DNA of 64,000 nt from a virus (Duplodnaviria; Caudoviricetes): positions 32,001 to 96,000 of the IMG/VR virus record IMGVR_UViG_3300032280_000442. One strand, given 5' to 3'. A program made the translations under genes and the position numbers. This document shows positions 6,011 to 32,007 of the stretch, one piece after another (position 1 is the stretch's first letter; every line of letters begins with the position of its first letter). The notes under the pieces are model-generated. The model was not told where the DNA came from. It was given only the letters and a program-made list of their open reading frames with translations, and made no database searches.

Positions 6011-6349
6011 TTACCAAGGGTCTTCTTCTTTTGGTTTAGCAGGTACCGCAACAGGTTGTGCTGCCGGAGCTTGTTTTTCTACGGTTTTTTCTTTAATAAT
6101 TGTTGTAGTTCCACCACCTTGTTGTTTTTGTTGGTTAGTATTATTATTTTCTAAATTGATAACAACAGGTGCTGCCGGAGCCGCTTGTTCTGTTTTCACA
6201 CCACCTTCTTCTTCAGAGTGACCTCCGAAAAGCTGTGTACTTAACCAAACACCTCCTCCCGCTACCACAGTAGTTAAGGTTCCGATTATTGTTTTTTTCA
6301 ACCCAGACCAACTTCCGTCTGATTCAGGTACATTTGTTTCTTCTGACAT
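6011..6349 (-). CDS. single-TM protein with Pro/Ala-rich tail
   Basis: TM IIGTLTTVVAGGGVWL; in operon with the CsgG-like gene. Confidence 0.6.
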   Translation of the reverse strand: MSEETNVPESDGSWSGLKKTIIGTLTTVVAGGGVWLSTQLFGGHSEEEGGVKTEQAAPAAPVVINLENNNTNQQKQQGGGTTTIIKEKTVEKQAPAAQPVAVPAKPKEEDPW

Positions 6350-11218: not shown

Positions 11219-11914
11219 CTATTTTTTAAATTTAAACACAAAATTACCCGCTGTTTTATTCCTACCATTTAAATTATTAGAAATTGAAGAATTATTTATC
11301 CCTAAACCAATTGACGCTGTTTTAGTACTATCCCATTCTCTAATAAATTTACCTTCTTTTGTAAATTGTAATATTGGTTTATACTGTTGTGGTGCGGGTT
11401 TTCCAAATCTTATAGAATGGTTTGCCTTATAAAACTCTTTCATTTTACTTACAGATTTTTCACTTCTTTTTCTTCTATCTTCATCGGTTAAACTATCCCA
11501 ATATTTTTTAACACCTTCTCGTCGTTTTTCTTTTTCTTTTTCAGAGTTTTCACCGTGAAGTTCATCATAGGTTTTGTCTTTAAAAAATTCTTGTATTTTG
11601 GTTTTACTTTCTTGACTATGACCTAATCTAAACCCATCTCCACCCTCTGTTAAATTACATAATGTTCCGGTTTTATTAATTTTTCTACCGTGAAAATTAA
11701 TTAATTCAATTTCTTTATCACAAGCATCCGTCCAACTTATATTATCAAATAAAATATCAACAATATAAGGCGTTTTTTTTATTATCTTATACCATATTTT
11801 ATTTCTACCATATGTATCAAAAGCTCTTTTGTGATTATCATCAGAATTTAACCCAATACCTATATAGAAAATTTCATTATTATCTAATCTTGTGTGTTTA
11901 TATACGTAAGCCAT
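11219..11914 (-). mobile_element. free-standing GIY-YIG-like homing endonuclease with NUMOD DNA-binding modules
   Basis: YVY...FYIG, NLTEGGDG, HSQESKTKI (NUMOD3), C-terminal NUMOD1/HTH KPILQF...EW.S...A. Confidence 0.8.
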
Positions 11915-14617: not shown

Positions 14618-14668
14618 ATTTATAAATATATTGAAATTTGTTAGTATTTATTATAAAAGAAATTTAAT

Positions 14669-15303: not shown

Positions 15304-15657
15304 TTATTGTATTATACTCAATAAGACATAACTTAACTTGTATCCCACAAACGCACCTAACGCCGACGGTATCGGGAATACAATTAATTTACCCAAGTCA
15401 GTCACATATTTTGGTCGGTTCACAATCTTACCCACAAAGAAGTAATATATTAGATATCCCAATAAAACTGCAATATCTGTCCGTGTTGCAATAAAAACAA
15501 CTAATGTGGCTCCCAAGAACCCAAAGATAAAATTATCTCTCACACCTTCCCAAATCTCTTTATTTGACGCACTTTCGTACTCCTTAACTATTTTCTTAAT
15601 TTTTACTTTATTCTTCTTAAAGTAATTATTCTCCGATTCCATATTTTGTCTTTCCAT
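15304..15657 (-). CDS. three-TM membrane protein
   Basis: three hydrophobic segments. Confidence 0.6.
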   Translation of the reverse strand: MERQNMESENNYFKKNKVKIKKIVKEYESASNKEIWEGVRDNFIFGFLGATLVVFIATRTDIAVLLGYLIYYFFVGKIVNRPKYVTDLGKLIVFPIPSALGAFVGYKLSYVLLSIIQ

Positions 15658-15814
15658 CTAATGTTTCTGCTTTAATTGTCTTCTCATTCATAAATGTTAA
15701 TTCTAATTGAGTACTGGCGATTAAATATTCTTCAACCATTTCCCAACTCATTAAATCTTTCATAAAAAACGTATGTAACGTTCTCATTATTTCAAATTCT
15801 GTTGCTTCGTTCAT
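15626..15814 (-). CDS. hypothetical protein
   Basis: overlap-coupled ORF. Confidence 0.45.
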   Translation of the reverse strand: MNEATEFEIMRTLHTFFMKDLMSWEMVEEYLIASTQLELTFMNEKTIKAETLDGKTKYGIGE

Positions 15815-16077
15815 ATTGTTTGTTTATCTTTACCTTCGTATAAGGTCGCTATGTTAATTTTTCCCTCAGTTTGCGCAAATTGTTCTAAAAAATTAAGTCG
15901 GACTTGTTTATTTAGTTCTAATAAATTCATTTCATCCAACTCTGTTGTTGTGAATTGTTCGTTTGATAATTCACATAGGTAAAAATGATGGGTCACATCA
16001 TAGGTCTTCCCTTTATAATCTAATGTGGATTGTTCCGACATTAATTTCATTTCTTTTCCGCTTAATGGACTTTTCAT
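15811..16077 (-). CDS. MqsA/YgiT-type antitoxin N-terminal-domain-like protein, lacking HTH
   Basis: MKSPLSGKEM...FYLCELSNEQFTTTELDE resembles, from memory, the N-terminus of Bacteroidota MqsA-family antitoxins. Confidence 0.6.
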   Translation of the reverse strand: MKSPLSGKEMKLMSEQSTLDYKGKTYDVTHHFYLCELSNEQFTTTELDEMNLLELNKQVRLNFLEQFAQTEGKINIATLYEGKDKQTI

Positions 16078-16079
16078 AT

Positions 16080-16265
16080 CTAATTTAATATCCAATTAAT
16101 TAACGCATTCATTTGATATTGTTCTTCTCTTATTCTGATATGATTTTGAATATTTTCAACAGTGATACCACTGTAGGTATTTGGATTTTTGACCATATCA
16201 TCTAAATCTTCGGTATGTTTCAACATTTCTTCGTATTTTTCTCTAATTTCTTTTTCTGTTTTCAT
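16080..16265 (-). CDS. hypothetical protein
   Basis: MKTEKEI...ALINWILN; coupled ORF. Confidence 0.5.
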   Translation of the reverse strand: MKTEKEIREKYEEMLKHTEDLDDMVKNPNTYSGITVENIQNHIRIREEQYQMNALINWILN

Positions 16266-16480
16266 ATTATTTGTTCTTCTTTACCATCGTTCCAAACGAT
16301 TTTACTTGTTTTACTTATTAAATCCGTAATAATTTTATAAAAAGGTGAGTCACTTCTTTTTTGGGTTACGGTTTGATTTTTATCGTCATAGATATAACTC
16401 CAAATGGAATTATAGTAAGAACCTGTTATTTTCTTTTCAACAACTCTACCTTTATCATCCACCTTTTCATTAACTATCAT
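16262..16480 (-). CDS. hypothetical protein
   Basis: coupled ORF. Confidence 0.5.
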   Translation of the reverse strand: MIVNEKVDDKGRVVEKKITGSYYNSIWSYIYDDKNQTVTQKRSDSPFYKIITDLISKTSKIVWNDGKEEQII

Positions 16481-16713
16481 AATAATATTTCAATTGTTAT
16501 ACCTGCTGGTCCTAATGATAGGTTGTAGGTGTTAAATCTGTTATCGTTTAACCATCCATACTTTTTGAAGTTAAATATGATAACATCTTTTCCTTCGTAT
16601 TGTGCGTGGATGGTATTTGTTTGGTAATCAATCGCCGGATGAGACACAAACCCATTTTTAACCGGATTTATAAACTCTTTTTCCAATTCCTGTGTCTGAA
16701 TATGAATTAACAT
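16477..16713 (-). CDS. hypothetical protein
   Basis: coupled ORF downstream of thyA-C. Confidence 0.5.
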   Translation of the reverse strand: MLIHIQTQELEKEFINPVKNGFVSHPAIDYQTNTIHAQYEGKDVIIFNFKKYGWLNDNRFNTYNLSLGPAGITIEILL

Positions 16714-16715
16714 TT

Positions 16716-17654
16716 TTAATTGCTTAAAGGTGCTTTAATTGTTGGATGTGATTCATAGTTCTCAATTTGGAATTGTGCTATTGATTGATACTCCATATCA
16801 ATTCCTGTTATTGGACAAGGAACAAATTTTAGTGTTGGTAATGGAAAAGGTTTTCTTGTATGTAAACCCGGACTGATGTTATATTTTCCAAAATACTCAG
16901 ATAATCCACCACCAAACGGCATTAATTCATCAACCGCTTTATTATAATTTTCTTCACCCATCGCTTGTTTTAACAATTCGGTTCTTTCTTGGTGAGTGTA
17001 TTTTCTTCCAATCTGTTCTTTTGCTTGTTCAATATGATTTAAGTATAAATGAACATCACCAAGATTTCCAATCAATTCTTCCGGAACCATATTAACTTCT
17101 TTTGCAATGATTTCCAATAACAATCCATAAGAAGCAATGTTGAATGGTAAACCTAAAAATGTATCTACTGAACGTTGATTCCACATTAAAGAGATTGCTC
17201 TTGCAGGTATATCATTTTCATCATATTGATTATGTGTGTAGATATTTCCAACAGGGTTATGTGTGTTATTCCATATTGTTGCTCTCTCTTCTAAACTCAA
17301 TTCTCTTGTATAAACTTGAAATCCATAATGACACGGAGGAAGAACCATATTTGGTAAATCGTGAACTGCCCAAGCATTAACCATTAATCGTCTACTATCC
17401 GGATTGGTTTTAAGGTCGTTGATTAGATTTTGAATTTGGTCTATCTTAACCCAATTAATCATTTTTATACCATCTTTGTCTTCCTCACCAATTATACCGT
17501 TACTTCCTTTCCAACTTCTCCATTGAGCCCCGTAAATTGGACCTAAGTCACCCCACTTCTTAGCAAACTCATCATCTGTTTTAATTTTATTGATGAATTC
17601 TTCTTGTGTTAATACTCTACCACTTTCGTGTAAATCTTTTTTAGTTGCTTTCAT
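16716..17654 (-). CDS. thyA: thymidylate synthase, C-terminal fragment
   Basis: DLGPIYGAQWR, NPDSRR, LPPCH (catalytic Cys), QRSVD.FLGLPFNIASY, GDVHLY.NH, IKAPLS. Confidence 0.92.
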   Translation of the reverse strand: MKATKKDLHESGRVLTQEEFINKIKTDDEFAKKWGDLGPIYGAQWRSWKGSNGIIGEEDKDGIKMINWVKIDQIQNLINDLKTNPDSRRLMVNAWAVHDLPNMVLPPCHYGFQVYTRELSLEERATIWNNTHNPVGNIYTHNQYDENDIPARAISLMWNQRSVDTFLGLPFNIASYGLLLEIIAKEVNMVPEELIGNLGDVHLYLNHIEQAKEQIGRKYTHQERTELLKQAMGEENYNKAVDELMPFGGGLSEYFGKYNISPGLHTRKPFPLPTLKFVPCPITGIDMEYQSIAQFQIENYESHPTIKAPLSN

Positions 17655-18363
17655 TTTTTATATCTTTATATTTCCATTTATAACCTAATGTAGATTTACA
17701 CCTACCTTTACAACAATTTGTTATGTTCCCACCATTATTGTAACCTAATGATTTAGCGGCGGACGCAGCACTATCAAATTCTTGTATAAAATTATCATCC
17801 AAGTCAAATTGTAATATAGGTTTTTTATTTTTTTCGTGAACTTCACCTAAGAATTTAGAATAATCGGTTTTTCTGTTTTTAATAGATTCTCTCCAACTGT
17901 TCCAATTTGTGTTTTGTTTAGTTTTTCTATCTCTTTCTTCAAAATCTACCTTACTAATTCTATCTCTTAATATTTTTTTTCTCTCTTCTTCCGTTACTTC
18001 ATCCAACCACATATTTAGGTGTCTACTTCTATTTGGATTATGAAAAACTGAATTTGAGTAATCAATAAACTTACTTGTATCCCCACCGTCACCAGCCTCT
18101 TCTCTTAAATTAGCCCATTCTTTTGATTCAACTACATTGTATAAATCACTTAATTCTATACCTTTTTTAATTAATTCATCAACACAGTTTGTTTCAAAAA
18201 CGATTTCAGTTTTAATATTATCAATAGTCAAACTATTTTTATTAATGTGTCGTTTCCAAATCTTACCACTACCTAAATAAGTAATCGGGTCTTTTGTTGT
18301 TTTACCAAGATACTTTAACCCAAAAGGGCTTGTTTTAATGTACAAATAATATTTTGTTTCCAT
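17641..18363 (-). mobile_element. GIY-YIG/Seg-like homing endonuclease with NUMOD1, inserted within thyA
   Basis: YLY....GLKYLGKT..D...YLGSG..W; WANL..E.GDGG; C-terminal KPILQFDL...EF.S...A..LG....I..CC. Confidence 0.82.
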
Positions 18364-18401
18364 ATTCTCTTTTATTATAAATATGGTGATGGGTATAAAA
18401 A

Positions 18402-18722
18402 TTACATATTTTTATCATCTTTTTTTAATTTTTCACATTCTTTTAGATACGCTTGATAAGCGTCCCCATCCCAAATATGGCAATTATTATCAACCAACCA
18501 TTTGATGTTTGTATTCCCCTGAAGAAACCAAAGAAGTTCAGTTACAATTGTTTTGAATGGCATCTTTTTGGTTGTAAGTAATGGGAATCCTTCTGACATT
18601 TTATGTCTGATTTGTCTTCCAAATACTGAGATTGTTCCCGTCCCGGTACGGTCAGATTTAGGGGTGCCGTTATCAAGAATGTCTTGAAGTAGGTCTGTGT
18701 ATGTTTTGTCTAATTTATTCAT
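18402..18722 (-). CDS. thyA: thymidylate synthase, N-terminal fragment
   Basis: [40 protein letters not shown]. Confidence 0.92.
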
Positions 18723-18755
18723 AAATCCCATATACTTTTTCTTTTTCGTTTTATT

Positions 18756-18902
18756 TTATTCAGTAGTAATTGTAGTATCATTACTATCACTTGTATTTTC
18801 TTCTTCATCTTTTAGTTCTTCAATATGTTGATACCACATCGGGTTTGGTAAACCACTATAGTAGTCCCACAATTCATCGTCGGTTGATTGCGTATTACTC
18901 AT
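18756..18902 (-). CDS. small acidic hypothetical protein (48 aa, not in ORF track)
   Basis: hand translation MSNTQSTDDELWDYYSGLPNPMWYQH...; overlaps the stop of the upstream gene. Confidence 0.45.
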   Translation of the reverse strand: MSNTQSTDDELWDYYSGLPNPMWYQHIEELKDEEENTSDSNDTTITTE

Positions 18903-19125
18903 CATCTAATTCACCTTCTAATTCAAGGTTTTGACCTTCTTCAACTTTACTATCAATGTATTCACGAAGTTCTTTCATATGTTGTAAGAACCCCAATCTT
19001 AATCTATGAAATTCCTCATCTTTGATTTCATCCCAATCACTATAACTTTCAAAACAATAATCAAAACCTTCTCCATCCATTCTGTATTGGACTGATTGCC
19101 AATTTTCTAATTCATCTTCTGTCAT
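18895..19125 (-). CDS. acidic hypothetical protein
   Basis: EGFDYCF..YS.W.EIKDE.FH. Confidence 0.55.
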   Translation of the reverse strand: MTEDELENWQSVQYRMDGEGFDYCFESYSDWDEIKDEEFHRLRLGFLQHMKELREYIDSKVEEGQNLELEGELDDE

Positions 19126-19127
19126 TA

Positions 19128-19559
19128 TTATACGATATTATTTAATTCGTTATTTTCAATCTCCTTAATTTTACCAACCATTTTCTCTAATCCGGAAAAC
19201 ATTGTCTTTCTTTTTTCCTCATACATTTGTCTCATATCTTCCTGTCTACCATCACCGATGAAAGTTTTACTAACTAAATTTTCAATAGTGTTGTGTAGTT
19301 TTTCTTTAATACTCATTGGAGAGGATTCAATTGGTACGAATATAATTTTCTCAACTTCGTACCTATCAAATTTCAAATTAAACTTAACCGACCGGGTATA
19401 TTTTTCAATAACTTCCAACTCAACATTCATATAAACTGTCGGACCTAATTTAGTCCAAAACAATTTTCCGTCTTCTTGGGGATTCGGTAACTGAACCCTG
19501 ATGTTGGTGCCAATAACGTTCTCCAACATAAAATCTATGTATTTTTTCGTTAATTCCAT
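19128..19559 (-). CDS. hypothetical protein
   Basis: ORF in operon. Confidence 0.55.
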   Translation of the reverse strand: MELTKKYIDFMLENVIGTNIRVQLPNPQEDGKLFWTKLGPTVYMNVELEVIEKYTRSVKFNLKFDRYEVEKIIFVPIESSPMSIKEKLHNTIENLVSKTFIGDGRQEDMRQMYEEKRKTMFSGLEKMVGKIKEIENNELNNIV

Positions 19560-19564
19560 TTTAA

Positions 19565-20020
19565 TTATAATTTATTCATCCACAAGTAATATTCTGTGGT
19601 ATTTGACGACCCCGTTGAGATGTCCACAAACTTGGTTCCCAATATGGTTCCATTTGTTATGTTATTCGGTAATATCGAACCACTTAAATTACCCCAAGGC
19701 GTCTCATACAAACTCAAGTTATATCCCGAACCTGTCGGTGTTAAGTGATATGTTGATTGATAACCGTTAAACTTATATGTTGATGAGGTTAAGAATACTA
19801 ATGTATCATTAGTTGACATAACAGTACCCATTGGACCAACTCGGTAATAAAATATTTTCCAAGTTTGACCAACCAAACTCTGTGTTGTAATAACACCTCC
19901 ATTACCTGGTGGTGGTGTTATAATAATTGGTCCGGTGTTATTAGTTGGACCTTCGTATGGGGGTGGAATTGTACAAGAACCTAATAATAATAATCCTAAT
20001 AATAATACTAACTTTTTCAT
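19565..20020 (-). CDS. lipoprotein, lipocalin-like beta domain candidate
   Basis: lipobox LLGSC; LVGQTWKI motif. Confidence 0.6.
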   Translation of the reverse strand: MKKLVLLLGLLLLGSCTIPPPYEGPTNNTGPIIITPPPGNGGVITTQSLVGQTWKIFYYRVGPMGTVMSTNDTLVFLTSSTYKFNGYQSTYHLTPTGSGYNLSLYETPWGNLSGSILPNNITNGTILGTKFVDISTGSSNTTEYYLWMNKL

Positions 20021-31961: not shown

Positions 31962-32007
31962 TTGACAAAGATACAAATAAAAAACCCACTATCAAAGTGG
32001 GTTTAAA

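Follow-up and report, generated by a model that had tools for sequence, protein, structure and literature searches.

The window analysed here, a 64,000-nt stretch of IMG/VR virus record IMGVR_UViG_3300032280_000442 (record positions 32,001 to 96,000), contains a thymidylate synthase (TS) gene, thyA, that is divided into two open reading frames (ORFs), thyA-N and thyA-C, with an endonuclease-like ORF lying between them (Table 1). The record is a 308,574-bp lake phage genome with terminal repeats. Relatives of thyA-N start at the second ATG (18722), are 105-109 residues long and share the same tail, and this ATG is the probable true start, giving a protein of 106 residues. thyA-N carries the motifs DRTGTGT and ELLWFL, and its C-terminal end is a helix followed by a TAA stop codon (18404-18402). 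thyA-C begins with an ATG of its own inside the endonuclease ORF, whose last 14 nt it shares, and carries DLGPIYG, DSRR, PPCH, QRSVD, GLPFNIASY and GDVHLY before ending in ..HPTIKAPLSN. We take the Asn of GLPFN to suggest deoxyuridine monophosphate as substrate. Both halves match PF00303 and hold catalytic motifs of the ThyA family, with thyA-N covering profile positions 1-90 and thyA-C positions 75-265. The sequence-only reading had placed the thyA-N stop, the gap, the endonuclease ORF and the overlapping thyA-C start at these same positions.

Table 1. Features of the divided thyA locus and its surroundings, in window coordinates
Feature	Position	Strand	Details
thyA-N (TS N-terminal fragment)	18731..18402	minus	109 residues from first ATG; PF00303 positions 1-90, E 5e-33
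Spacer	18401-18364	minus	38 nt, between thyA-N stop and endonuclease ORF
Free-standing homing endonuclease gene	18363..17641	minus	240 residues; frame differs from thyA-N
thyA-C (TS C-terminal fragment)	17654..16716	minus	312 residues, own ATG; PF00303 positions 75-235 and C-terminus, E 6e-58
Predicted RNA hairpin in spacer	18360..18386	minus	8-bp stem (CCAUAUUU/GAAUAUGG); endonuclease AUG 18363-18361 in 3′ arm
Promoter-like motif ATATTTATA	18376..18384	minus	Includes TATTTAT; overlaps hairpin 5′ arm and loop, 12 nt before endonuclease ATG
Predicted long-range stem	17628..17701	minus	10 bp (GUGUAAAUCU/AGAUUUACAC); brackets endonuclease stop and thyA-C AUG
Mobile cassette (apparent co-conversion tract)	17532..18491	minus	~960 nt; from identity steps and BLASTN matches

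The two TS fragments share one reading frame; 1077 nt and many stops separate them. The nearest named relative is Flavobacterium phage vB_FspM_immuto, in which ThyA is uninterrupted and 423 residues long, against 109+312 = 421 residues here, with an equal-length, non-conserved linker at the break. Therefore, no coding sequence is missing or surplus. The sequence-only reading had proposed a comparison with an endonuclease-free allele, and in this one the two ORFs together correspond to one continuous gene of related phages; the middle ORF has its own start and stop with no in-frame fusion, as in other "genes-in-pieces". The break falls between HIWDGD and DLGPIYG. The best solved TS relatives, those of Enterococcus faecalis and Lactobacillus casei, are long forms with a small-domain insert, and the break aligns inside this insert, a variable small-domain loop, in keeping with the variable-insert region that the sequence-only reading had named. 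In a model of the uninterrupted L009 allele (predicted template modelling score 0.79; L numbers denote related IMG/VR loci), the break lies at the end of helix 85-101, in a loop (102-113) where confidence dips and which precedes helices 114-123 and 125-131. Because the break is at a helix-flanked loop, the tail of thyA-N and the head of thyA-C (..LTQEEFINKIKTDDEFAKKWG..) are native TS helices, and only a few residues around the stop and the start seem new. KKD is found on both sides of the break and AAAAAAGAT is repeated in the DNA; this repeat may mark the original insertion point.

The C-terminal 60 residues of the middle ORF match the Pfam models NUMOD1 (E 7e-8) and I-HmuI_NUMOD-like (E 2e-6), and this ORF thus has a C-terminal DNA-binding module of the NUMOD/helix-turn-helix kind. 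A sequence-profile search of the PDB with the endonuclease alignment gave only spurious matches and therefore a comparison of folds was needed. An AlphaFold (AF2) model was built from eight homologues, all intact and 59-86% identical, and reached a predicted local distance difference test score (pLDDT) of 67, with residues 1-77 and 180-235 well predicted and the helical linker poorly. Residues 3-86 of the model superpose on the catalytic domain of I-TevI (1mk0; Z 7.1, root-mean-square deviation 2.7 Å, 81/97 residues) and, more weakly, on the GIY-YIG domains of UvrC and Slx1, whilst the DNA-binding part of I-HmuI (1u3e; Z 7.9, 28% identity) is the match for residues 166-236. Moreover, the homologue alignment contains a YLY..YLG motif, and H39, E82 and N85 are invariant. 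On this model we read the middle gene as a GIY-YIG/NUMOD endonuclease with I-TevI/Seg architecture, in keeping with its earlier assignment as a homing endonuclease. Among cultured phages in a phage collection the cassette was found in none, the best match to the endonuclease being 28% identical. A second free-standing endonuclease-like ORF of 231 residues lies elsewhere in the window (11219-11914, minus strand), where it adjoins a metallophosphoesterase gene. It bears YVYKH..FYIGIG at the N-terminus, is I-HmuI NUMOD-like at the C-terminus and shares 28% identity with the endonuclease of thyA.

We searched thyA-N against a collection of 5.8 billion proteins, considering proteins of 59-191 residues, and obtained 5407 matches. 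Break points were tallied for the best 120 short-TS clusters (90% identity) among these matches. The great majority (96/120) end within a few residues of the break described here, a further 8 carry an endonuclease-free tail (..NNINKNKKE) and 10 are broken at another position; members of several of these clusters lie on contigs of 200-390 kb. At the level of the locus, 17 of 80 related IMG/VR loci show this split, whilst about 60 have a continuous thyA. Twelve of the 80 have the order thyA-N, homologous endonuclease, thyA-C, including one in which the endonuclease is frameshifted and one in which it is only 59% identical. One locus (L067) has an unrelated 323-residue ORF at the same site, and in four the gene is split without an endonuclease, the halves being joined by a bare ATGA stop/start overlap. 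In L045 the arrangement at the split is non-overlapping.

The sequence-only reading had held that there is no space for a group I intron and that intein junctions are lacking, and had proposed a search with intron models. The only sequence outside ORFs at the insert is the 38 nt upstream; downstream there is the 14-nt overlap. A scan of 15500-20000 against Rfam, at E-values up to 10, found no intron family, Intron_gpI remaining unmatched. As this negative would be weak alone, we added T4 td as a positive control, and the same kind of scan recovered its Intron_gpI at E 2.5e-8 despite the presence of I-TevI inside it. At the gathering threshold no intron was found by Rfam in 13 related loci, probable td-site introns among them, and scans of L047 and L026 by E-value likewise gave nothing. 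The thyA-N stop and the thyA-C start are conserved in all cassette-bearing loci, the start being ATG, or GTG in L030 and L034. Thus neither flanks with a ribozyme core nor exons devoid of their own stop and start, as expected for a group I intron, are seen. As for protein splicing, in-frame or split Hint blocks are absent: on both halves Pfam finds PF00303 and no Hint or intein domain, the tails at the break, ~14 residues of native TS sequence, fall short of the length of a split intein, and the endonuclease and its host gene are read in different frames, with stops preceding the endonuclease. An intein is excluded by frame, stops, short tails and the lack of a Hint domain.

It could still be argued that the insert is removed, either as a cryptic self-splicing intron with a core overlapping the endonuclease ORF or as an intein, perhaps a split one as in the "fractured genes" (PMC2677866). 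T4 td offers a model for the former, as do L026, L028 and L070, in which an I-TevI-like ORF sits at another thyA site with 140-200-nt flanks and a second exon that has no start. Rfam misses this probable intron in all three and is therefore not fully sensitive. However, the frame, the conserved stop and start, the 38 nt and the td control listed above all speak against splicing here, and in the endonuclease-free alleles the halves overlap by 4 nt, so that there is nothing to splice. We consider these comparative arguments (conserved stop and start, endonuclease-free alleles) stronger than the negative result from Rfam, and regard removal of the insert by splicing as barely credible.

L026 (2205-4421), L028 and L070 are of note in their own right, since thyA is there in three pieces. 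The endonuclease-free ATGA split at the site of the present break (site 1) is accompanied by an I-TevI-like GIY-YIG ORF with non-coding flanks at the position of the T4 td intron. As the last exon has no start codon, this second insert is probably a group I intron that Rfam misses. Two forms of recoding were considered and rejected. A -1 frameshift fusing the halves of the endonuclease-free ATGA alleles finds no canonical slippery heptamer in the zero frame of the A-run, and has no bearing on the window, in which the halves are 750 nt apart; a gap of that size also led us to reject translational bypass of the T4 gene 60 type. In the endonuclease-free loci L021 (4310-4335) and L026 (2520-2545) the junction ..AAAAAAGAATGAAAG.. 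sets the frame of the C-fragment at -1 to that of the N-fragment, beside an A6 run, and occasional frameshifting to a fused chain may occur in such alleles.

Next to the architecture stands the question of whether the divided gene still works. Pairwise ratios of nonsynonymous to synonymous substitution rates (dN/dS; Nei-Gojobori method, eight split alleles) were ~0.09-0.15 for thyA-N and ~0.25-0.44 for thyA-C (median 0.29, raised by variable inserts), with a median of 0.14 for the endonuclease. Both TS halves and the endonuclease are under purifying selection, and the earlier statement that both halves keep intact motifs extends across many diverged split alleles. An alternative would be that thyA is a pseudogene, killed by the insertion, with the phage using the TS of its host and the halves decaying. 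Phages are able to lose genes of nucleotide metabolism. Against this, both halves are open and keep all TS motifs, dN/dS is well below 1 between alleles that are near synonymous saturation, ~100 distinct clusters (90% identity) retain the split with its stop at a fixed position, the start of thyA-C is retained as ATG or GTG, and the genome contains no ThyX that could serve as a back-up. We therefore consider decay of the gene very unlikely. The conserved motifs, the selection and the lack of ThyX argue for a working two-chain TS, short of proof. In L011 the endonuclease is frameshifted and thyA-N is intact; thyA-C matches there over its first 224 residues, with no long ATG-initiated ORF called at that position.

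The thyA gene of the window is a composite. Compared with six other split alleles, its nucleotide identity starts at 0.53-0.78 in the first 240 nt, rises to 0.8-0.95 from gene position ~241 to ~1200 (window 18491-17532) and falls to 0.4-0.7 beyond, and a sliding comparison at the protein level gave the same picture. The block so delimited runs from the last ~90 nt of thyA-N, stop included, through the spacer and the endonuclease gene to the start codon and first ~120 nt of thyA-C. Four segments of the gene were then compared by BLASTN with all fetched loci. Inside the block the eight best DNA matches are all split alleles (84-87%). Outside it they are uninterrupted alleles throughout, namely L013/L016 and L017 (90-92%) in the 5′ part, L038 and L071 (88-93%) in the middle part, and L013/L016, L075 and L025 (85-87%) in the 3′ part. 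When the linker is masked, the split alleles are scattered over the TS tree and are not monophyletic. Moreover, synonymous divergence (dS) is 0.6-0.8 in the endonuclease and at least 1 in the flanking thyA sequence. The block is consistent with the footprint expected of homing with co-conversion of ~90- and ~120-nt flanks. As both the TAA and the ATG lie inside it, each transfer would turn a continuous thyA into a split one, and since the backbone is closest to uninterrupted alleles whilst the stop and start are imported, the split came with the cassette in this lineage.

This last point bears on whether the split might instead have come first, thyA being already two genes (for instance through a frameshift leading to an ATGA junction) before an endonuclease settled in the gap. 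Such a scenario has been described for gene 43 (PMC2988022), and would account for the four loci that are split without an endonuclease, for the unrelated ORF at the same site in L067 and for L045, whose layout looks like a simple intergenic insertion. However, the endonuclease-free split alleles share the flanking peptides of the cassette and are explained equally well by deletion of the endonuclease, and the affinity of the backbone to uninterrupted alleles, with the stop and start within the imported block, is contrary to it. We regard this order of events as unlikely, though it deserves some weight; it concerns the ultimate origin of the split and is compatible with the present working of the locus.

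The short spacer also holds candidate expression signals. It is strongly conserved among cassette-bearing loci and is predicted to form a hairpin (ΔG -6.1 kcal/mol, z -2.5). A hairpin is also kept in L008, despite a 9-nt insert in the loop, and in L045, where the stem differs in sequence. In L067 a much stronger one (ΔG -19.1, z -6.5) precedes the unrelated ORF; in all three, TATTTAT is found in the 5′ arm or the loop. Formal covariation gave nothing countable for the spacer hairpin, RNAalifold/MAFFT having placed the L045 hairpin out of register. The TATTTAT that the sequence-only reading had noticed in the gap is at 18383-18377 and forms part of the longer motif ATATTTATA, which occurs 15 times in the window against 5.0 expected, a count reached in 0/100 shuffles. 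All but one of the copies (14/15) lie outside ORFs of the same strand, and 11/15 stand 3-19 nt before an ORF ATG. ATATTTATA is conserved in all cassette-bearing loci and also precedes the HNH gene of L020. The copies in the window include those at 14621, 37360, 48476, 55077 and 58441. Five of the 15 end exactly 3 nt before an ORF ATG and a sixth ends 5 nt before one, a spacing which points to leaders that are very short or missing, or to a part in initiating translation.

At the other end of the endonuclease gene, the predicted long-range stem (ΔG -12.8, z -3.7, equalled in 0/200 shuffles) places the AUG in a 54-nt A-rich interior region, and may serve to present the thyA-C start codon. Eight of its base pairs are kept in 7/9 loci, both arms being coding sequence, and no compensatory change was counted across the nine loci. 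In T4, a hairpin blocks translation of I-TevI on early read-through transcripts and an inner late promoter yields an open message (PMC2988022). The arrangement of hairpin and ATATTTATA resembles this control.

Taken together, these data lead us to propose, with a probability of roughly 0.77, that a free-standing GIY-YIG/NUMOD1 cassette splits an L. casei-type thyA into two independently translated ORFs, that it homes, and that the two chains reassemble without splicing. To judge by these sequence patterns, the endonuclease would cut the uninterrupted thyA of co-infecting relatives, and recombinational repair would copy the endonuclease gene with short flanks, so that a continuous thyA would become split at each homing event. 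Translation of thyA-N would end at its own stop. On read-through transcripts the AUG of the endonuclease would be held in the small hairpin, and the ATATTTATA inside it could drive a later transcript without the 5′ arm, as for I-TevI of T4. thyA-C would begin at its own AUG in an A-rich stretch. ThyA-N (106-109 residues) and ThyA-C (312 residues) would then associate non-covalently through the two small-domain helices on either side of the break, in an (N·C)2 complex equivalent to the TS homodimer, with neither RNA nor protein splicing.

Several points weigh against this proposal. For the endonuclease, Pfam finds no domain, the GIY-YIG model included, in the N-terminal part, and the PDB profile search likewise left the N-terminal domain unmatched. 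The AF2 model is of only moderate quality at its pLDDT of 67, Z values of ~7 can also be reached by unrelated folds, and by our own reading of the alignment the usual catalytic Arg of GIY-YIG enzymes is not obvious. The spacer hairpin is weak (-6 kcal/mol), with no covariation counted. The dN/dS of thyA-N rests on dS values that are often saturated. Moreover, thyA genes are mosaic in general and ordinary recombination could contribute to the block pattern, whilst assembly and activity of the two TS chains are inferred from conservation only.

Site 1 is not the only place at which TS is broken in related phages. Endonuclease cassettes are found after ..YGxGWRNWNG (site 2) in L088, L094 and L135, and just before the catalytic PPCH (site 3) in L020, L069, L092 and L115. 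At both sites the N-fragments end in ..DDxLY(E/Q)DYLK.. and a stop, and the C-fragments start with M..(L/F)(T/S)KEEFLxKLKTD..FN..(Y/F)G before TS sequence resumes. These heads are homologous to the head of thyA-C in the window (BLASTP E 2e-8 and 9e-7). The N-tails are alike by inspection only (LYEDYLKK and AYQAYLKE), BLASTP of the 25-residue site-2 N-tail against thyA-N having given no alignment. The cassettes at sites 2 and 3 share with the window the spacer motif TATTTAT(A/T)ATAAAAG and an overlap-type start (..AACTAA/ATG), and their endonucleases differ, being HNH or canonical GIY-YIG enzymes. A DNA pattern for KEEFL(E/Q)KL(K/R)TD retrieved 35 IMG/VR loci (L166-L200), all of them N-termini of thyA C-fragments at sites 2 and 3. 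In our reading the new ends at these sites would duplicate the small-domain helices found on either side of the break at site 1.

We suggest tentatively, at somewhat under even odds, that the break in the window was the origin of portable "reassembly tails" which cassettes later carried to other loops of TS. If so, a selfish cassette would have taken up a self-associating piece of its host enzyme, and would carry a built-in repair kit that allows it to cut in new places. The closest parallel is found in NrdA of Aeh1, where the tails are essential for assembly (PMC3045599). Two loci with such ends deserve mention. At L047 (4628-4962) the HNH gene of a site-3 cassette is nearly all deleted and the N-tail runs into the last residues of the endonuclease (..KNFKNWNYEN), which appears to represent a decayed stage of the endonuclease life cycle with the split kept. 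In L196 the ORF containing 6301-6333 encodes a divergent TS-family protein (..ALHPCHHEIQF.., ..SMRSSD..) that opens with the KEEFLEKLKTD head, and here the cassette seems to have reached a distant TS paralogue.

Few enzymes have been studied as thoroughly as TS, whose gene is the classic home of the T4 td intron. There are hundreds of diverged natural variants of one split, with an intact endonuclease, a decayed one or none, and uninterrupted sister alleles exist. Therefore, fission tolerance, the drag of endonuclease flanks, and the origin and persistence of genes-in-pieces become directly testable. If we read these patterns correctly, an essential enzyme can survive bisection in many wild phages without RNA or protein splicing. 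For annotation, the consequence is that in metagenomes each of these thyA halves is entered as a short "thymidylate synthase" gene in its own right.

Full-text literature searches returned no report of a TS split by a free-standing endonuclease, nor of a natural two-chain TS. Several known systems can nevertheless be set beside it. The T4 td/I-TevI system has the same host gene, an endonuclease with the same order of GIY-YIG domain, linker and helix-turn-helix-type DNA-binding domain, and a similar start, occluded by a hairpin with a promoter-like element inside, as in the late-only translation of I-TevI (PMC2988022). It differs in that T4 has a ribozyme and splice sites in the RSVD/GLPFN region, whereas here a stop and a start codon delimit the insert, which would yield two chains and lies in a small-domain loop. 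The "fractured genes" of Dassa et al. 2009 (PMC2677866) share the order of N-part, endonuclease and C-part and likewise come from environmental phage-like DNA; they have intein halves, in contrast to the ~14-residue native TS tails without a Hint domain seen here.

Among genes-in-pieces, gene 39-60/mobA and gene 43/seg are further examples (PMC2988022). A split at one site is likewise found with an endonuclease gene in Aeromonas phage 25 (gene 43A/seg43/43B) and without one in phage 44RR (split gene 43; Petrov et al. 2010, as cited in PMC2988022), a pairing like that of thyA, in which the endonuclease may either have made the split or moved into it. The gene there encodes DNA polymerase, and the endonuclease-free form described in that citation has intercistronic untranslated sequence in place of the bare ATGA overlap. 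In addition, the co-conversion-like block at thyA is consistent with a split that travels with its cassette.

The endonuclease-split TS is a further case of the genes-in-pieces type represented by nrdA-a/mobE/nrdA-b of Aeh1 (Friedrich et al. 2007, as cited in PMC2988022), for which Crona et al. (PMC3045599) describe an active enzyme, and which the sequence-only reading had correctly named as precedent. In both, an essential nucleotide-metabolism gene of a large T4-related phage is present as two ORFs with a free-standing homing endonuclease between them, there is no intron or intein, short terminal tails lie at the break, and reassembly from separate chains is expected. The host enzyme is ribonucleotide reductase in Aeh1 and TS here; mobE is of the HNH family, whereas the thyA endonuclease is read as GIY-YIG/NUMOD1. 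The Aeh1 break lies in a functionally critical region and its tails are new sequence made by the insertion, whereas the TS break is in a variable surface loop with tails that are almost wholly native helices. Lastly, the TS split, for which activity is inferred, differs from that of Aeh1 in that it recurs across many diverged wild phages, some with the endonuclease and some lacking it.

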